A DNA stretch of 64,000 bases, taken from IMG/VR virus record IMGVR_UViG_3300027704_000017, positions 5,034 through 69,033 of that record. One strand, 5' to 3'. Shown here one piece after another: positions 7,874-64,000 of this stretch (the stretch's first letter is position 1; every line of letters begins with the position of its first letter). This stretch comes from a virus. The translations under genes were made by a program, and so were the position numbers. The notes beneath the pieces were generated by a model. It saw only the letters and a list, made by a program, of their open reading frames with translations. It was not told where the DNA came from and ran no database searches.

Positions 7874-10800
7874 ATGGCACATAGAACCCTACACGCAGAC
7901 CTCGAAGCATCTTTACTAGCGAATGATGCTTTTGCATATGCACACCTAGTAAAATTCGAAAAACCTATTGATACGGAAACAGGCTATCCCGTTAAAACAG
8001 CTAAAGACTACGCCTATATAAGCGATGGCTCTCATGATGTGTCCTTTGATGATGGAAGCAAAGATATCAATGGAAACGCTAACGGCTCACAAGTTTATAT
8101 TGCGAACAGGTTGAAGAAAGTAGGCAGTGTTACAGAAACAATACAAGCTCGCGCAAGTAATATAAATTTAGAAATAGATGCCATAGCTCTAAATACTACT
8201 TTTACGTCAGTATCTACATTTACTTCCACCACTTTCACTGCGGGGTCTAGTATAGTAGATGAGGGTTTTGCTGAAGGCGACACAATACTTTTAACTTCAT
8301 CAAACTCAAACAACACTGCTAAGATACGTATCGACTCTTTTTCTAATGAGAATAAAACTGCCTCGTATACTCCTATCAACCGATCAAGTTTATCTACTGG
8401 ATCTGCTAACTATACGTTTAGTTTTGCGTCCGACGAAGTGCAAGCAATTCTTCAAGACACTGGAGAAACCGGCTACGCAGGGTACATAAACCGAGAGGTC
8501 TTTATATATAAAGCGCATATTAACCCTGACACAGGTGTTATTATTGGAGCACCTTACTTACTTTTTAAAGGAATAATAGCTTCCGCAAAATTAAGCGAAA
8601 AATTAAGCGAAGATGTTACAAAAGACTCTAAGATTTCTTGGAGTCTTACTAGTCACTGGGGAGACTTTGTTCGTGTAAACGGTCGTCTTACTTCTGACCC
8701 AGAGCACAGAGCTTTAAACGGAGAAGGAGTATCTGACTCTTTAGCACTTATACGTCCGGAATACGGCAGCGATTTAGGATTTATGCACTCTGAACAAGCA
8801 CTTAATCTTGTTGCCAATTATAATGTTATGGTAACAAAGACTAAACTTAAAATGAAGAGAAAGTGGTATGGAGCTAAAACCTATAAGCAGGTCGAGTATC
8901 AGGAAGAGGAAGAGCGCGAAGTAGATTTACGCTTTAATCTGGATGCAAAAAGACTTCCTGTAGTTTACGGTGTTCAAAGAATCCAAAGCTTTCCTGTGTT
9001 TGTTGATACAAAGAATGATGACTCTAAGCAAGTATATGTAGCTTATGCAATGTGTGAAGGCGAGATCGGAGGTCTTTACGACATATATATAGATGACCAG
9101 TCTTCGATATGTATTGACAAAAACGACTTAACTACACGAAGTGGAGATGCTACTAACTCAGAAGTTATATGTACCGGACGTATGGATAGAGGAGACACTT
9201 TAACAGCACAAAACGTTTCTTCTGGCACAGCAGTATCTTATAATCCTATGACAGGAACTTTTGGATCGGGCTGGGAAGGTTACAATGGTACTGATGGCGC
9301 TTACGGCATATATCTTCGTAACCTCACACCTATTGCTGATACTTCAGTATCAGGCGGGGCCTCTACTCAAGGTGCCGGAATATACCATGAAAAAGGAACA
9401 AAACTAGACTCTCCTTTGCCTATGAAGCTTACTATGCACACAGGTAAACCTTTTCAAAAATCAGATGATACTTTATCTGCTATTGCTGCAGCAGGTAACT
9501 TTAAAATACAAACAGACTATTTTACAGGTACTGGAGATTACTGGGGACCTAACCATCAACTATTAGATACGGCTTATGTTACCGCACACTACACAATAGG
9601 AGAAGGCGATACAACTATTCCCGACTTAGAGTTTGTTGTAAGAGGAAAGGTTATAGATTGTTACGATTACGATGATTCTTTTGTACAAGATTCTTTTTAT
9701 TCTGGCTCTGATGCGGCTATTACCGCTTTTAATATAGGCGATATTGTAACTATAAAAAACACTAGTAATGCTACTCTAGGCACTTCTACTATTGCCGATA
9801 TATCTACTTATAAAGATACAAATAATAACGATGTTCATAGAGTTAGATTCCAAGACTTAGACAGAACTGATAGTAGTAATGTTGTGCACACTGCTTTTTA
9901 TATGTTAAACGGTAGTAATCAAAAGTATAGTTTTGCTACACATGATAATGTTTATGTTGATAGCTCTGTACCTGCAACTCTTACCGCTGTTACTTCATTC
10001 TCCGATAACTCAGGAGGTAGTAGTATAGACGCCACATTTACCTCTCCAAGCACTGCACTTCAAGAAGCTGTAAGTATATCTGACTTTGTAACAATAGTTG
10101 ATAATGCTGATTTAGCAGGCTCTGTAGCTGCTATTATTGATACTATGGGAAGTACTTTTGAGTTTACTAACTCTTCTGGAGTGCTTAGAGACATAGGCGG
10201 TGCTACTGGTGCCTCCTCGCTTGCATCAACTGCTAAAGTAATTATTAAAGATTGTATACAACTCTCAAGCTCTTCTAGCGATACGGATGATGCTTATAAT
10301 GGCATGATTGTAGAAGTTACTCGAAATTATAATGATAACTCTACGCACGTTCAAAAACATACAATTGTTGACTATGATGGAGGTACTCGAGTTGCCAAAG
10401 TTGATAAACCTTTTGATAATATCGCAGTCCCTCAAGCAGGCGATACTTTTAGAATTCTAAATAAAGGAGACAAAAGAGTTTCTTTAAACCCTACTATACA
10501 GTTGGTAGATTACTTGACTTCAGAAAGATATGGCAGAGGTCTTAATGTTCTAGAAGACCTGGACCCAGACTCTTTCAAGCAAGCAGCTCGTGATTGTGAT
10601 ACTCGATCAGACGTAACAATGCTGCTTGCAAATACGTCTGTTGCTTTAAATGCAGTGTACAAATTATTAGACACAAACAGCAAGTTAAGGTTCCAAGGAA
10701 AAGTAAAAACTATTACGGCTGTAACTGTTGGAGGAACTACCTATGACGAAGTTACCTTTACAGATGTTATAGGTAAAGTTGCCAAGAAATGGACTGACTA

Positions 10801-59813: not shown

Positions 59814-60199
59814 TAAACCAGCTACTACACTGTTAAAAAGTGCTACACCCTGCCCATCCACCAGGATTGTGTAGCGATTGACCCTCAACTTAGCGTTTTT
59901 AGAGAAAGGATAAACGTAGTCTACGACCACAAACCTACTTTGTTCGGTACAAAGATACAAAACCCCCTACTTGCCATACGCTTTATACACCTCTCAAGTG
60001 GGTAAGGTGTGCCAGTCTGTCCGCGAGATCAAAGAACACCAAAGGTTAATCAGATCACTCAAGCATTGTTACTGGACTTAACGAGCAGTTGGTAGCACTT
60101 ATTTATAGTCCCTGCATATCACAGACGCTCACCAGCTTAGGACTTACAGTGAAGGTACAGGGAGACGCTTTATCAGTGCGTTCCTTTCCTCACTTTTGA
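59790..60199 (-). ncRNA. Candidate ~410-nt structured non-coding RNA
   Basis: Own promoter and terminator, no credible ORF, multiple stems. Confidence 0.6.
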
Positions 60200-60205
60200 A
60201 ACACT

Positions 60206-60234
60206 ATTATACTTACTTTTAACCAAATCGTCAA
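60206..60234 (-). promoter_or_regulatory. sigma70-type promoter of candidate ncRNA
   Basis: TTGACG-17bp-TATAAT. Confidence 0.85.
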
Positions 60235-60450
60235 GAACTATTTTTGGAATCCTTAAACTATTTGCTAGGAATCAAGCCATTCCTGAAAGGTTTTAATATA
60301 CTCACCAGAGCCTTTCATACAACTAACATAAATTTCGTATCTATCGTACATCGCACTCATACTAACCTCCCATACATACTAGAACTAAAGGGAAGAAGAA
60401 TAGCGTAGCTACGAACCACGCTATACCACTATACTTTTGTGACGCGGACA

Positions 60451-60774
60451 CTATAGTGCTGCCAAAGCATTTACTAGTGACTCAAGGTCTTGCTTAGATG
60501 CTTTCTCAAGTGTAGACAACTCTACACCAAGTGCTTCGTTGATCTGTGCTACTAGCTCTGCTTTACGGATTACCGGAGCACCAGTCTTGGTGACTCGTGG
60601 AGCTGCTTTGTAAACGCCCTCACGCACTAGCTTAGCAACAATAGATCGTGTAGTCTTGCTGAACTCTTCAGACAATCTAGCAACTGTCTCTGGAGTTGGG
60701 TTATCTTGATAGTCGGCAACCATAGCCTGTACCATTTCTTCTGTGTAGTTTACTGCTTTAGTTACTTCTGTCAT
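60451..60774 (-). CDS. A2-like DNA-binding protein
   Basis: VNYTEEM...RSIVAKLVREGVY...IRKAELV...LEKASKQDL. Confidence 0.75.
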   Translation of the reverse strand: MTEVTKAVNYTEEMVQAMVADYQDNPTPETVARLSEEFSKTTRSIVAKLVREGVYKAAPRVTKTGAPVIRKAELVAQINEALGVELSTLEKASKQDLESLVNALAAL

Positions 60775-60837
60775 AATCTTGTCTCCCGATAAGAATGCTT
60801 TGATTTGTTTGATTAGGTTCTTTGTTTTCATGTTTCT

Positions 60838-60866
60838 ATTATACGGCTAATTAGGTATTCTGTCAA
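60838..60866 (-). promoter_or_regulatory. sigma70-type promoter
   Basis: TTGACA-17bp-TATAAT. Confidence 0.85.
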
Positions 60867-60869
60867 GAC

Positions 60870-61079
60870 TTATTTTATTTCTGGTATAGTCTCGAAGAAC
60901 ATTTCTTCACCCCAGATCATCTCTATAAGCTCTTCTGCATCCAGAGCCTCGCTACCTTCAAAGCCATCATCTTCTAGCTCTTGACGCCATGTAGATAGTT
61001 GACTGTTCCACATATCGTTAGTGTAGAAGTCGAAGCTACCGTCTGCTATATCGAATGTCACTACTGTTGCAATTGCCAT
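60870..61079 (-). CDS. Small acidic hypothetical protein
   Basis: AAGGA RBS; own promoter at 61121-61149. Confidence 0.65.
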   Translation of the reverse strand: MAIATVVTFDIADGSFDFYTNDMWNSQLSTWRQELEDDGFEGSEALDAEELIEMIWGEEMFFETIPEIK

Positions 61080-61120
61080 GTTAAATCCTTAATTTAGTTG
61101 TTTTCTTGGTTTATGCGTGT

Positions 61121-61149
61121 ATTATACGCCCATATCACCATGTTGTCAA
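61121..61149 (-). promoter_or_regulatory. sigma70-type promoter
   Basis: TTGACA-17bp-TATAAT. Confidence 0.85.
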
Positions 61150-61720
61150 TAACTTTCGGGCAAACACGGTGACCAAACGCAGTTTAATTCTCGGGGGCCC
61201 GACGCGACCTCGACGTGTCAAGTATTATTTTCCCTAATTGTCCAAAATTATATCGTCCCCGCCCAGGTTTTCAAAGACTAGACACTTCTATCCCTAATTT
61301 GCCCAAATTTGATTTAGTACTTGACATTGTTGGTGTACTACTGCTATAATCGGCGCCTTTGGCAGCAACTTTCATTTACTTGGTCGAATTTGCTCGGGGT
61401 CACAGAAAAGACTTGACATTGTTGAACTACTACTGTACAATCGGCGCAGGCTACTCTTGGGAGCAATCGTAGTACTACTCAATCGTTGTTCTACTACTGG
61501 CGCCCCCGCGCCGACCATGTCAAAAAAAGACCTGACCAATTGCCCCCAACCTGGTCACACGTTTTTGAGGCCCATTCAAATAAATCATTGTTGTTCTACT
61601 ACTGGCGCCCCCGCGCCAAAAAAATCATAAAGTCAAGCATTATTTTGCTTTTTTTATGATTTTTCTGGAAAAAGAAAAAATCCGCAATTTTTCTTTTTTG
61701 CGGATTTTTGGGTTTTGCAG

Positions 61721-61736
61721 TGTTCCACGTGGAACA
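61721..61736. promoter_or_regulatory. parS: parS consensus site
   Basis: Perfect palindrome TGTTCCACGTGGAACA. Confidence 0.7.
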
Positions 61737-61745
61737 TTGAGAGGG

Positions 61746-61776
61746 CTTCTAAATGAGAATGGATCTCATTTAGAAG
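61746..61776. promoter_or_regulatory. Inverted repeat containing Fur-box-like site
   Basis: CTTCTAAATGAGA-ATGGA-TCTCATTTAGAAG. Confidence 0.5.
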
Positions 61777-61792
61777 TTGGCACGATTCTTGC
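61777..61792 (+). promoter_or_regulatory. sigma54 (-24/-12) consensus
   Basis: TTGGCACGATTCTTGC = TGGCAC-N5-TTGC. Confidence 0.55.
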
Positions 61793-61914
61793 CTAGTAAA
61801 TTTCTATAATGATAAAAAGTTGAATTAAAATCATAATCAGTGGGCAAATCGTGCGGATTATTTCCATTTTCATTTTAAGGCGGATTAACTCCGCCTTGTC
61901 TCTGTTTTTTAAGC

Positions 61915-62565
61915 TCATCGCCCTAGCTCCAGAAGTTGAGCGCGGGTCGTATCGCGCAGAATGTGGGTGAGAATTGCGGCCTCATAATCTCGCGCATCTT
62001 CTAGCGCGGTGTGTGGCTCATCTTCTAGCGAATCGCCTAGAATAAATTTTGCCATCGCGTCAGCAGTCATTTGTGGCTTGCGTCCCTTAGCAGTCAAGAG
62101 GCCGCGATCTATACAAAATTGCTGATATTCTGCCAAAACGCCGATTTTACGTTTGGCCGCCTTCATTAGACAAAACCGCTCTGCAAAGATGCCGAGATTA
62201 ATGCGAGTATTGCGACATTTACCAAGATCGAACGAAACATTGTAAGCAGTCAATACAGGCGAATATTGAGCATTGACGCGCACCAACCATTGATTAATTA
62301 AGCCAACACCAGCAATTGAGCGATGACCGTCTTCGACCATTTGGTCATAATCCTTTAGCCTACGTTGTGCCGATTGCTCAGACCAAAACGCGTCAGGGTC
62401 AGCCAGTGGGTCGGAGAATAGCGGGAATTTGCCAAAATGCCCATTTACAAGGTGGCCGACCTGCTCCACAATTTCGCCCTGCTTGGTTACGATTACCGCG
62501 CCAAAGTCTGCAACGGTTTGCTTTTTGGTGGTTTCAGTGTCTACGATCAGATAAAAATGTTTCAT
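61915..62565 (-). CDS. DEDDh 3'-5' exonuclease (DnaQ-like)
   Basis: VDTET, AYNVSFD, HTALEDA. Confidence 0.85.
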   Translation of the reverse strand: MKHFYLIVDTETTKKQTVADFGAVIVTKQGEIVEQVGHLVNGHFGKFPLFSDPLADPDAFWSEQSAQRRLKDYDQMVEDGHRSIAGVGLINQWLVRVNAQYSPVLTAYNVSFDLGKCRNTRINLGIFAERFCLMKAAKRKIGVLAEYQQFCIDRGLLTAKGRKPQMTADAMAKFILGDSLEDEPHTALEDARDYEAAILTHILRDTTRAQLLELGR

Positions 62566-62568
62566 GGT

Positions 62569-63054
62569 TTACGCTCTCAGTTCTAGTAGTTTGGAATTTA
62601 ATTGTACAGCATTACGGGTACGAATGCCAAATTTTTCTGCCATATTTAACACGCCCATATTATCATCGTAAAAGGTAGCGTTTCGAGTCCAACGTGCAAA
62701 GGGTATTTTGAGGTCAGCAAATAGCGCCAACAATTTAGCGCGTTTCATCTCAGCATCACCGCGATTGTCACCGAGAGCGCGAGACAATACAAAGTGCGCC
62801 TTGATACCATGATCAGCCAGAAAAACCTTATCCCAAACACCCAACACCCTAGCAGTGCAGATAATAACAACATCGCCATTTGCATAATTTGATTGCATCA
62901 ACCGCGCCAGTGGGAGCAGTGTATCGCGCTCGATATTCTCGCGAGTGTTATCAGCGATCCATTTTGGCAAATCAATATCACCGTTTGCCAGTGTCGAATA
63001 TCGGTGGCTTGAGTCGATCACCGTACCATCCAAATCCCAGATTTTATATTGCAT
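62569..63054 (-). CDS. HAD-family phosphatase (PNK 3'-phosphatase-like)
   Basis: DLDGT, CTAR, K, YDDN. Confidence 0.85.
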   Translation of the reverse strand: MQYKIWDLDGTVIDSSHRYSTLANGDIDLPKWIADNTRENIERDTLLPLARLMQSNYANGDVVIICTARVLGVWDKVFLADHGIKAHFVLSRALGDNRGDAEMKRAKLLALFADLKIPFARWTRNATFYDDNMGVLNMAEKFGIRTRNAVQLNSKLLELRA

Positions 63055-63317: not shown

Positions 63318-63626
63318 TTATTTGATTGAAGATAAAAGAGTTGCTAGGCTTTGGCCGGTGGCTTTTTCTAGTCCCGCGCATGATTCCAGATCCAAGCCCG
63401 CGCATATAGCCGCGACCATATCGGTTTTTGTTGGAGCCGCTTTCTTTTTAGCAGGGGCAGGCTTGCTAATGTATTCGATGCCCTCACGCTTGCATTTTGC
63501 AATGATGGATCTCACACCGCGATCTAGTTGGACAGCCAAAGCCTGCGCTTTTTCGTGGTTGATAGGAGCCGCGTCAGTTAGGACAGCGATCATTTCGGGA
63601 GTATAGTTTACAGTTGTAGTAGTCAT
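63318..63626 (-). CDS. A2-like DNA-binding protein
   Basis: VNYTPEM...RSIIAKCKREGIEY...TKTDMV...GLEKAT. Confidence 0.7.
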   Translation of the reverse strand: MTTTTVNYTPEMIAVLTDAAPINHEKAQALAVQLDRGVRSIIAKCKREGIEYISKPAPAKKKAAPTKTDMVAAICAGLDLESCAGLEKATGQSLATLLSSIK

Positions 63627-64000
63627 ATTTTGTAGCCTTTTAGTATTATTAAGAATGAAATTTATTATAACATTAAAATTGTATAGAGTGCAACAAATAA
63701 AACGCATCCGCCCATAACAATTGTGAAAGTAGCTTCGAGTATTGCATTGAGTAAGTCGCGCATTTTTTTGTTTCCCTATCTGTCTAATGAAGTGATAGTA
63801 TACCACAGCCAGCGAATGAGTCAAGCATTAATAAAATTTTTCTGCATGTTTTTTAGAACAAAAAAGCATATAAAGGGGGGCGGTTAGACGACCTGGTTAT
63901 AAGCAGGCGCTCTGCGCTCCCCCACACGTACTACTTTAAGAAAAAGTCATAAACCAAAAGGGTGTATACTAAAAAAATTCTTGACAATTTACCCAAACCC

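Follow-up and report, generated by a model that had tools for sequence, protein, structure and literature searches.

Predicted host-factor sites at the edge of a T5-type repeat region in a marine phage: a chromosomal-type parS, a Demerecviridae inverted repeat and a sigma-54 element

Introduction

The stop and restart of DNA injection by bacteriophage T5 has been a puzzle for decades, and docking on DnaA, itself a hypothesis, is the only host-factor proposal made for it. The annotated injection-stop signal (iss) of T5 (9140-10149) lies between the last pre-early gene and the converging ends of early genes and contains repeated TTAAATGAGAATCATT units, the palindrome AAATGAGATTGATTCTCATT, DnaA boxes and a major nick. 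It is part of a long terminal repeat and halts DNA entry, for whose resumption A1 and A2 are required. Among the pre-early proteins of T5, encoded on the first-step-transfer DNA, is the deoxynucleoside-5'-monophosphatase Dmp. Here we analyse an 80-bp non-coding stretch of a T5-like phage which holds, at the end of an operon that encodes a Dmp homolog, a parS site, an inverted repeat and a sigma-54 element. The stretch is part of a window of 64,000 nucleotides (nt), the whole piece of DNA that was analysed, corresponding to bases 5034-69033 of the viral record IMGVR_UViG_3300027704_000017; positions refer to the window. We report the sequence identity, conservation and context of the three elements, as well as the recurrence of the parS and sigma-54 pair in unrelated phages.

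In bacterial chromosomes parS acts as the "centromere" site on which ParB (Spo0J) is loaded, while enhancer-dependent promoters of the sigma-54 (RpoN) polymerase are recognised by their -24/-12 consensus. A review gives TGTTNCACGTGAAACA as the general parS consensus, GTTCCAC and GTTTCAC as documented ParB half-sites and a Vibrio cholerae consensus with N at both ends, and describes the Enterobacteriaceae as being without chromosomal par genes (PMC7022226). On virulent phages, host-type parS sites have been described together with Spo0A boxes for phi29 and Nf of Bacillus; the five parS sites of phi29 are reported to be read by host Spo0J/ParB and used for entrapment in spores (PMC2731898). For T5, the part of a preprint by Davison that was available presents the repeats as likely iss candidates of unknown function and models the DnaA boxes as docking on membrane-bound host DnaA, and the words Fur, ParB and sigma are absent from that part of the text (bioRxiv 10.1101/866236). 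Among the matches listed in our literature searches, no paper linked parS with T5-like phages and none concerned a pairing of parS with sigma-54 sites on phage genomes.

An earlier note on this DNA, made from the letters of the window, had read the stretch as three unrelated host consensus sites in a row (parS, a Fur-like box and a sigma-54 site) with no gene placed to be regulated by them. Citing the repeat-rich injection-stop region of T5, it had proposed a docking or decoy array that recruits or titrates host DNA-binding proteins, perhaps to arrest or pull DNA during two-step injection or to localise the genome. All three sequences are found where that note placed them; the parS and sigma-54 assignments stand, while the Fur assignment, at 11/19 a background score, does not.

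Results

The parS site

The palindrome upstream of the inverted repeat is the 16-mer described as parS2 and parS3 of Pseudomonas aeruginosa (PMC4368675). It is the sole match to TGTTNCACGTGNAACA with fewer than three mismatches, both in the window and in the whole 69-kb contig. As perfect 16-bp palindromes of any sequence are expected about once per window (1.2 in shuffled sequences), the significance of the site rests on its specific sequence and on its conservation.

To follow conservation, the 216-amino-acid (aa) gene of the adjoining operon was used as an anchor, and 31 viral loci encoding a relative of its product (48-99% identity) were compared; L008/L009, L014/L015 and L004/L005 are near-duplicate rows among them. 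At up to one mismatch, parS lies downstream of the 216-aa gene, on the side of the repeat region, in 23 of the 31 relatives and is exact in 18 of these 23, and six of the eight relatives without it have at most 486 nt of downstream DNA. A complete relative of 82.8 kb (G004) carries exactly one parS. The flanks of the site are otherwise unalignable between distant relatives. Fourteen of the 16 positions are fixed among the 18 exact copies, which vary at positions 5 and 12 only: ten are of the CC/GG form (TGTTCCACGTGGAACA), seven of the TT/AA form (TGTTTCACGTGAAACA) and one is mixed. In the five copies with one mismatch, the change falls on position 1 or 16, or on a central base. The variation among the exact copies is, at the level of sequence, that known for ParB sites with GTTCCAC and GTTTCAC half-sites. 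Consensus match and selection-limited variation together thus assign the site, by its letters, to the chromosomal type of parS.

The ParB_N domain was not found in G004 or in the contigs G000, G001, G002, G005 and G006, so the ParB of the host is the likely reader of the site. T5, pVp-1, VPG01 and Akh-2 have no parS within one mismatch. In L029 a parS copy with one mismatch lies at about 5159 inside the coding region of an inserted gene, the AATGAGAATGGTTCTCA repeat staying intergenic.

The inverted repeat

The element which had been labelled a Fur-like box is a real inverted repeat under the wrong name. Scored against the 19-bp Fur consensus GATAATGATAATCATTATC, the best site between 61700 and 61800 reaches 11/19, a value that 243 sites in the window equal exactly and 78 exceed, and a Fur box at this place was therefore rejected. 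The repeat itself is unique in the window (one site within four mismatches of AATGAGAATNNTTCTCATT), and its core, AATGAGAAT-NN-TTCTCATT, recurs in T5 and in T5-like phages (Demerecviridae) of Vibrio and Aeromonas. Scanning for AATGAGAATNNTTCTCATT with up to three mismatches gave eight forward and ten reverse matches in T5, in both terminal repeats, with the motif placed in the iss at 9552-9709 and in the right-repeat copy. Three to five matches each were obtained in pVp-1, VPG01 and Akh-2, near the record ends in the latter two and in the interior of the pVp-1 record, and G004 has a perfect copy; the reversed pattern, used as a control, gave 0-3 matches per record. The T5 iss units score 14-15/19 against the same Fur consensus. 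As - strand RNA the repeat folds with -17.3 kcal/mol (z score -9.2). Because its core is common to T5-like phages, we assign the repeat, by sequence comparison, to a Demerecviridae-wide element of the injection-stop region.

The sigma-54 element

The third element is the only exact TGGCAC-N5-TTGC in the window; at up to one mismatch there are five matches where 2.77 are expected. Its -24 GG and -12 GC elements stand at the correct spacing, which marks it as a predicted sigma-54 site. Six relatives (L002, L012, L013, L021, L023 and L024) keep it as TTGGCAYGATTNTTGCY, a conserved form that can be written TGGCAYGATTNTTGC, in which GG and TTGC never change and the differences are confined to the spacer and the C/T position. 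Since its distances to the repeat and to the stop codon vary among relatives, the element is an independent unit.

The observation of the earlier note that no gene is positioned to be regulated, the downstream gene being convergent, is correct: the element directly abuts the stop codon (61793-61795) of a 41-aa open reading frame (ORF), and what follows it is nothing but the antisense strand of the 41-aa and 216-aa genes. No Sigma54_activat domain was found in G000, G001, G002, G006, G009 and G010; an activator could come from the host. The lack of an activator gene in the searched contigs, the antisense-only downstream sequence, the absence of the site from G004, G005, G007 and G008 and the in-frame copies of its 17-mer described below count against a general role.

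Pairing of parS and sigma-54 sites in other viruses

At least 121 viral loci, of many kinds, contain the parS palindrome. A sigma-54-type site within 400 nt of it is present in L035 (two sites), L096, L111 and one relative, where an estimated 0.09 loci or so would be expected by chance. A scan for parS followed by TGGCAYG-N4-TTGC gave 15 viral loci with a gap of 1-30 nt and 10 with a gap of 31-60 nt; in 10 loci the sigma-54 site stood before parS. The reversed sigma-54 pattern gave no viral locus. With both motifs masked, the loci with a pair fall into 13 blastn clusters, two of which are opposite ends of a single contig, leaving 12 groups; the marine T5-like clade is one of the 12. In L163, L164, L165 and L169, all outside the clade, and in the L168-type relatives within it, parS and the -24 element are 7-10 nt apart. 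Sites can also be stacked: L165 has a parS, three sigma-54 sites and a parS, and L190 two of each.

A scan of 185,579 bacterial and archaeal species genomes, restricted to the CC/GG form of parS with a sigma-54 site at a gap of 1-30 nt, found one case. The pairing is thus a feature of phage DNA rather than a host regulatory module at this spacing. The single case also led us to reject the parS palindrome, in the form and at the gaps scanned, as a host enhancer of a short-range sigma-54 promoter. The conserved host-type parS, the lack of a ParB gene in the searched contigs and a pair that recurs in many unrelated phages bear out part of the reading of the earlier note.

PHROG annotation near the modules in G001 and G002 was uninformative except for a terminase match, and the ORFs around the modules of other lineages were too ambiguous to tell what the sigma-54 sites face. 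Dense clusters of sites were seen in unrelated phages (L165/L187, an 11-kb viral contig, and L190/L194). In one of them a parS is followed by three tandem sigma-54 sites, two more parS and (GGCAAGC)n repeats; in another, two sigma-54 sites and two parS lie at both ends of an 11-kb contig.

Operon and repeat region around the three elements

The three motifs are located between the stop codon of the 41-aa ORF and a bidirectional terminator, opposite a repeat region with orphan promoters (Table 1). The 41-aa ORF has relatives in L002, L007, L010, L013, L016, L023 and L024 and on this ground is taken as a real gene. Its start codon shares bases with the stop codon of the 216-aa gene (ATGA), an arrangement of translational coupling, and its product has a charged N-terminus and a hydrophobic tail. 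Other relatives have a different small membrane peptide (MKTKILA... type) at this position, and in L012, L014, L017, L020, L021, L025 and L032 an extra gene lies between the 216-aa gene and parS. The hairpin within the 41-aa ORF is terminator-like on the + strand in the window only, as its stem is kept in relatives and its T-run is not; a conserved hairpin (GAGGCGGA..TCCGCCTC) with a variable loop occupies the codons for EAE..RL. Two small - strand proteins, encoded at 60451-60831 and 63318-63824, weakly match families of phage DNA-binding or D5-like regulators (E about 2e-4) and are candidate binders of the inverted repeat. T5 A2 gave no significant match, its E values against these two ORFs being 0.87 and 0.37.

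Table 1. Positions of the three elements and of neighbouring features in the window.
Feature	Position	Strand	Remarks
Host-type parS TGTTCCACGTGGAACA, 16-bp palindrome	61721-61736		16/16 identical to P. aeruginosa parS2/parS3
Inverted repeat CTTCTAAATGAGA-ATGGA-TCTCATTTAGAAG	61746-61776		13-bp arms, 5-nt loop; pair I4
Predicted sigma-54 -24/-12 element TGGCACGATTCTTGC	61778-61792	+	GG 61779-61780, GC 61791-61792; points into 3' end of the convergent operon
41-aa membrane-peptide gene (MSLKNRDKAELIRLKMKMEIIRTICPLIMILIQLFIIIEIY)	61793-61918	-	Kept in relatives; not in the program-made ORF list
Hairpin AAGGCGGA-TTAAC-TCCGCCTT inside the 41-aa ORF	61876-61898	+	-13.5 kcal/mol
216-aa gene, phrog_20187	61915-62565	-	Weak match to a DNA polymerase exonuclease subunit family
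161-aa Dmp homolog (deoxynucleoside-5'-monophosphatase), phrog_415	62569-63054	-	30% identity to T5.001, E 3e-18
Sigma-70 promoter, near-consensus	61321-61350	+	12/12; faces the 80-bp stretch, precedes no ORF
Sigma-70 promoter, near-consensus	61413-61441	+	11/12; faces the 80-bp stretch, precedes no ORF
Repeat ATYGTTGTTCTACTACTGGCGCCCCCGCGCC, two copies	61482-61526, 61587-61631		Direct-repeat family D2
Bidirectional intrinsic terminator, stem ATCCGCAA / TTGCGGAT	61675-61710		Inverted-repeat pair I1

On the other side of the elements extends a repeat-dense non-coding region. Its orphan promoters at 61321 and 61413 belong to the direct-repeat families D1 and D13, and both copies of the ATYGTTGTTCTACTACTGGCGCCCCCGCGCC repeat end in ACTACTGGCGCCCCCGCGCC; a unit of this type is found throughout the clade and sits left of parS in most relatives. 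Between 61319 and 61631, promoter-like and non-promoter versions of one repeat unit occur (..TTGAC..ACTACTACTG[TATAAT C]GGCGC..), and the GGCGC-CCCC-GCGCC hairpins there are reminiscent of the GCGC surroundings of the T5 nick (..CCCTGCGC at 9748), a context linked to nicking. The terminator has an A-run before and a T-run after its stem; its folding energy is -14.5 kcal/mol as + strand RNA and -13.1 kcal/mol as - strand RNA, and a U-tract follows the stem in both directions. A 46-aa ORF on the + strand (61656-61796) runs through all three motifs; it was rejected as a gene, since it spans the terminator and relatives differ by indels of at least 5 nt across its interval. Upstream of the operon, a GC-rich conserved element (GGGGGCGGTTA...CGCTCCCCC...GTACTACTTT) is seen in the window at about 63885-63950, in L158 at 8120-8185 and in L025 at about 2440-2520, and in G004 it comes directly after a perfect AATGAGAATGATTCTCATT palindrome.

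The source contig is linear, 69,033 bp long and estimated to be 70% complete; the G+C content is 41%. Its genes, which include a major tail protein, a family A DNA polymerase, an SbcC-like nuclease and a ribonucleotide reductase, are of T5 type, and the polymerase shares only about 44% identity with its counterparts in cultured Demerecviridae of Proteus, Aeromonas, Vibrio and Escherichia. The metagenome runs that contain the 80-bp stretch are marine, and DNA of the phage turns up in such runs of at least 8 studies. Judged by its genes and by these runs, the source is an uncultured marine T5-like phage distant from the cultured Demerecviridae. The interval 61100-62600 has no near-identical record among 50,697 phage records; a search of the whole window yielded no Rfam family, a scan for transfer RNA genes found none, and a Pfam search of 13 local proteins returned nothing for the genes adjoining the stretch.

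Discussion

We consider it somewhat probable that the 80 bp form the inner edge of a T5-type injection-stop (Repeat Region 3) control region, in which three cis elements provide a landing pad for host ParB and the sigma-54 polymerase. Two features that characterise the T5 iss, a repeat-rich region bordering pre-early genes and AATGAGAAT..ATTCTCATT units, are recognisable in the sequence, while paired DnaA boxes are not. The link to T5 drawn in the earlier note finds backing in the position, the repeat content, the Dmp homolog and the shared inverted-repeat motif.

As no ParB gene was found in the searched contigs, parS would be read by the ParB of the host, which would load as cytidine triphosphate (CTP) clamps next to the pre-early operon; this is the most secure step of the proposed mechanism and a likely one. 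The inverted repeat, which is not convincingly a Fur site, would be the clade's version of the T5 iss AATGAGAAT..ATTCTCATT units and would be bound by a factor common to T5-like infections. For the sigma-54 holoenzyme we see an even chance that it docks beside parS; it would do so as a closed complex at 61778-61792, facing the 3' end of the operon. Without an activator, such a complex could act as a roadblock that bounds the sliding of ParB or blocks read-through into parS; alternatively, the site could be a counter-promoter, firing against the operon only when a host activator is active. The outcome might be to tether or position the first-entering DNA, as in the DnaA-docking idea for T5, or else to ensure that a stalled genome is inherited, as reported for phi29. 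That the locus actually helps to stop injection, a notion drawn by analogy with T5, we regard as unlikely.

A number of observations weigh against the landing-pad reading. The near-duplicates L004 and L005 have 1.9-4 kb of downstream DNA and no parS. Only six of the 23 relatives that carry parS retain the sigma-54 site. Sigma-54 sites number 0 in the complete G004 and in G005, G007 and G008, and 2 in G006; with the four zero counts, sigma-54 as a general transcription strategy of the clade was rejected. A fixed orientation of the pair was likewise rejected (15 loci versus 10). A 17-mer identical to one at the sigma-54 site (TTGGCACGATTCTTGCC) lies inside a small membrane-protein ORF of L010 (2784-2800, codons LGTILA), upstream of the operon, and variants occur in L013 (about 2850), L017 (2282-2320), L019 and L020, the 17-mer being duplicated within the ORF as an imperfect inverted repeat in the last three. 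Because TTGGCACGATTCTTGCC is found in frame in membrane-protein ORFs, the sigma-54 motif may partly reflect shared ancestry or coding sequence. Consensus DnaA boxes number 0 in 60000-62500 and one in the whole window, and no homolog of T5 A1 was found in G000, the complete G004 and G005, an empty answer that shows little. With no A1 homolog, no DnaA boxes and neither genome ends nor a terminal repeat placed on this linear fragment, two-step injection in the clade is an analogy. Host ParB and RpoN are assumed, and their binding is predicted. Finally, transcription of the - strand operon would also take all three elements into its 3' untranslated end, which leaves room for roles as RNA.

The elements could instead belong to an ordinary phage control region, in which the palindrome and the inverted repeat are operators of phage-encoded regulators and their likeness to host sites is coincidence or convergence. 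The place of the stretch between a terminator and the end of an operon in a promoter-dense region would suit this, as would the weak matches of the neighbouring ORFs to DNA-binding or D5-like families and the presence of the inverted repeat in T5-like phages that infect different hosts, as expected if a phage protein binds it. Yet the exact parS copies vary only between the documented ParB half-sites, with the other changes at the outermost or central positions, and a 16-mer shared by so many diverse viral loci and paired with sigma-54 sites in 12 groups points to universal host readers. We hold the operator explanation to be quite unlikely.

Another possibility is a sigma-54 promoter with its enhancer, the palindromes serving as activator sites, which would drive an antisense RNA of about 105 nt (approximately 61803-61905) against the 41-aa peptide, in the manner of a type I toxin-antitoxin system or as a pre-early shut-off. 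The perfect -24/-12 element invites this explanation, the more so with a TGT-N10-ACA palindrome upstream, the pattern of NifA-type sites, a + strand hairpin with a T-run at 61876-61910 and a target that is a real small hydrophobic peptide. Enhancer looping at sigma-54 promoters, however, normally needs more than the 7-10 nt by which the palindrome of other lineages is separated from the -24 element, and no activator gene was found in the searched contigs. Relatives do not retain the T-run that follows the hairpin, the predicted whole RNA folds no better than shuffled sequences (z score -1.27), and most relatives keep the peptide or parS without a sigma-54 site. A type I system would show a conserved antisense promoter and terminator, whereas here the sigma-54 site is restricted to a sub-clade and the T-run is lost. 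An antisense RNA is, on balance, distinctly unlikely.

Pure decoys, which would titrate the scarce ParB and sigma-54 of the host away from its chromosome after amplification of the phage DNA, are improbable as well. Sigma-54 is a low-abundance factor and several lineages stack multiple sites (L165, L190), but in this clade each genome has a single parS and no more than one intergenic sigma-54 site, and the fixed place by the pre-early operon suggests a local, positional role.

Contigs from RNA libraries (four runs; short pieces, mostly of relatives at 90-95% identity, carrying no strand, starts or usable depth) include one in which 61737, the base next to parS, is followed directly by the small ORF (61795-61884), from a relative without the repeat and the sigma-54 site, a second that bridges the 41-aa ORF and the 216-aa gene, and one that covers 61360-61419; they decide between no readings, because strand and start are missing from them and they may stem from carried-over DNA. 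Action at the level of RNA, in which stem-loops of the operon's 3' untranslated sequence would stabilise or process the pre-early mRNA, would fit the position of all three elements between stop codon and terminator, the strong fold of the inverted repeat and the contigs just described, yet it is very improbable, since a hairpin would allow compensating stem changes where the exact parS copies have 14 fixed positions, the repeat halves of L002 and L013 differ without compensation and the motifs recur in phages with other contexts and orientations.

A distant clade with the T5 repeat and with parS instead of DnaA boxes would offer a natural comparison for the T5 problem, approachable with ParB, CTP and parS mutants, and the pair in 12 viral groups, together with its near absence in bacteria, suggests a general exploitation by phages of two universal host DNA-binding machines. 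Taken further, many unrelated phages might independently have built a module of parS and sigma-54 site that is hardly ever formed in bacteria and that in marine T5-like phages takes the place of the DnaA boxes, with the pause and anchoring of the first-entering DNA resulting from capture through whatever origin-region or closed-complex-forming proteins a host provides, DnaA in enterics and ParB with the sigma-54 polymerase elsewhere; this generalisation by analogy is a long shot. Our interpretation of the locus itself is a reasonable, if hypothetical, extension of the published T5 hypothesis.

Comparison with known systems

Compared with chromosomal parS of Pseudomonas, the phage site has the same 16-mer and the same two half-site variants; in contrast to the chromosomal sites, the phage copy is single and far from any par operon or oriC. 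The sigma-54 element matches bacterial promoters of this class in the exact TGGCAC-N5-TTGC, with GG and GC at the right spacing, and differs from them in three ways: the downstream sequence holds no gene in sense orientation, the search for an activator gene gave none, and there is no evident distant enhancer. The palindrome closest to such sites on phages is parS, 7-50 nt away. With phi29 the locus shares a chromosomal-type parS on a virulent phage. Unlike phi29, it has one parS, on a T5-like phage with sigma-70 TTGACA/TATAAT promoters; this parS keeps a fixed place at the border of the pre-early operon and has a sigma-54 element as its partner. As in Repeat Region 3 of T5 (left terminal repeat), a large repeat-rich non-coding region lies by pre-early genes, here marked by the Dmp homolog, and as in the T5 iss there are AATGAGAAT..ATTCTCATT units, one copy in the window, alongside a site for a host origin-region protein. 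In contrast to T5, this site is parS in place of DnaA boxes, a sigma-54 site is present, and the order of the T5-type repeat and the parS or DnaA boxes relative to the operon end is different.

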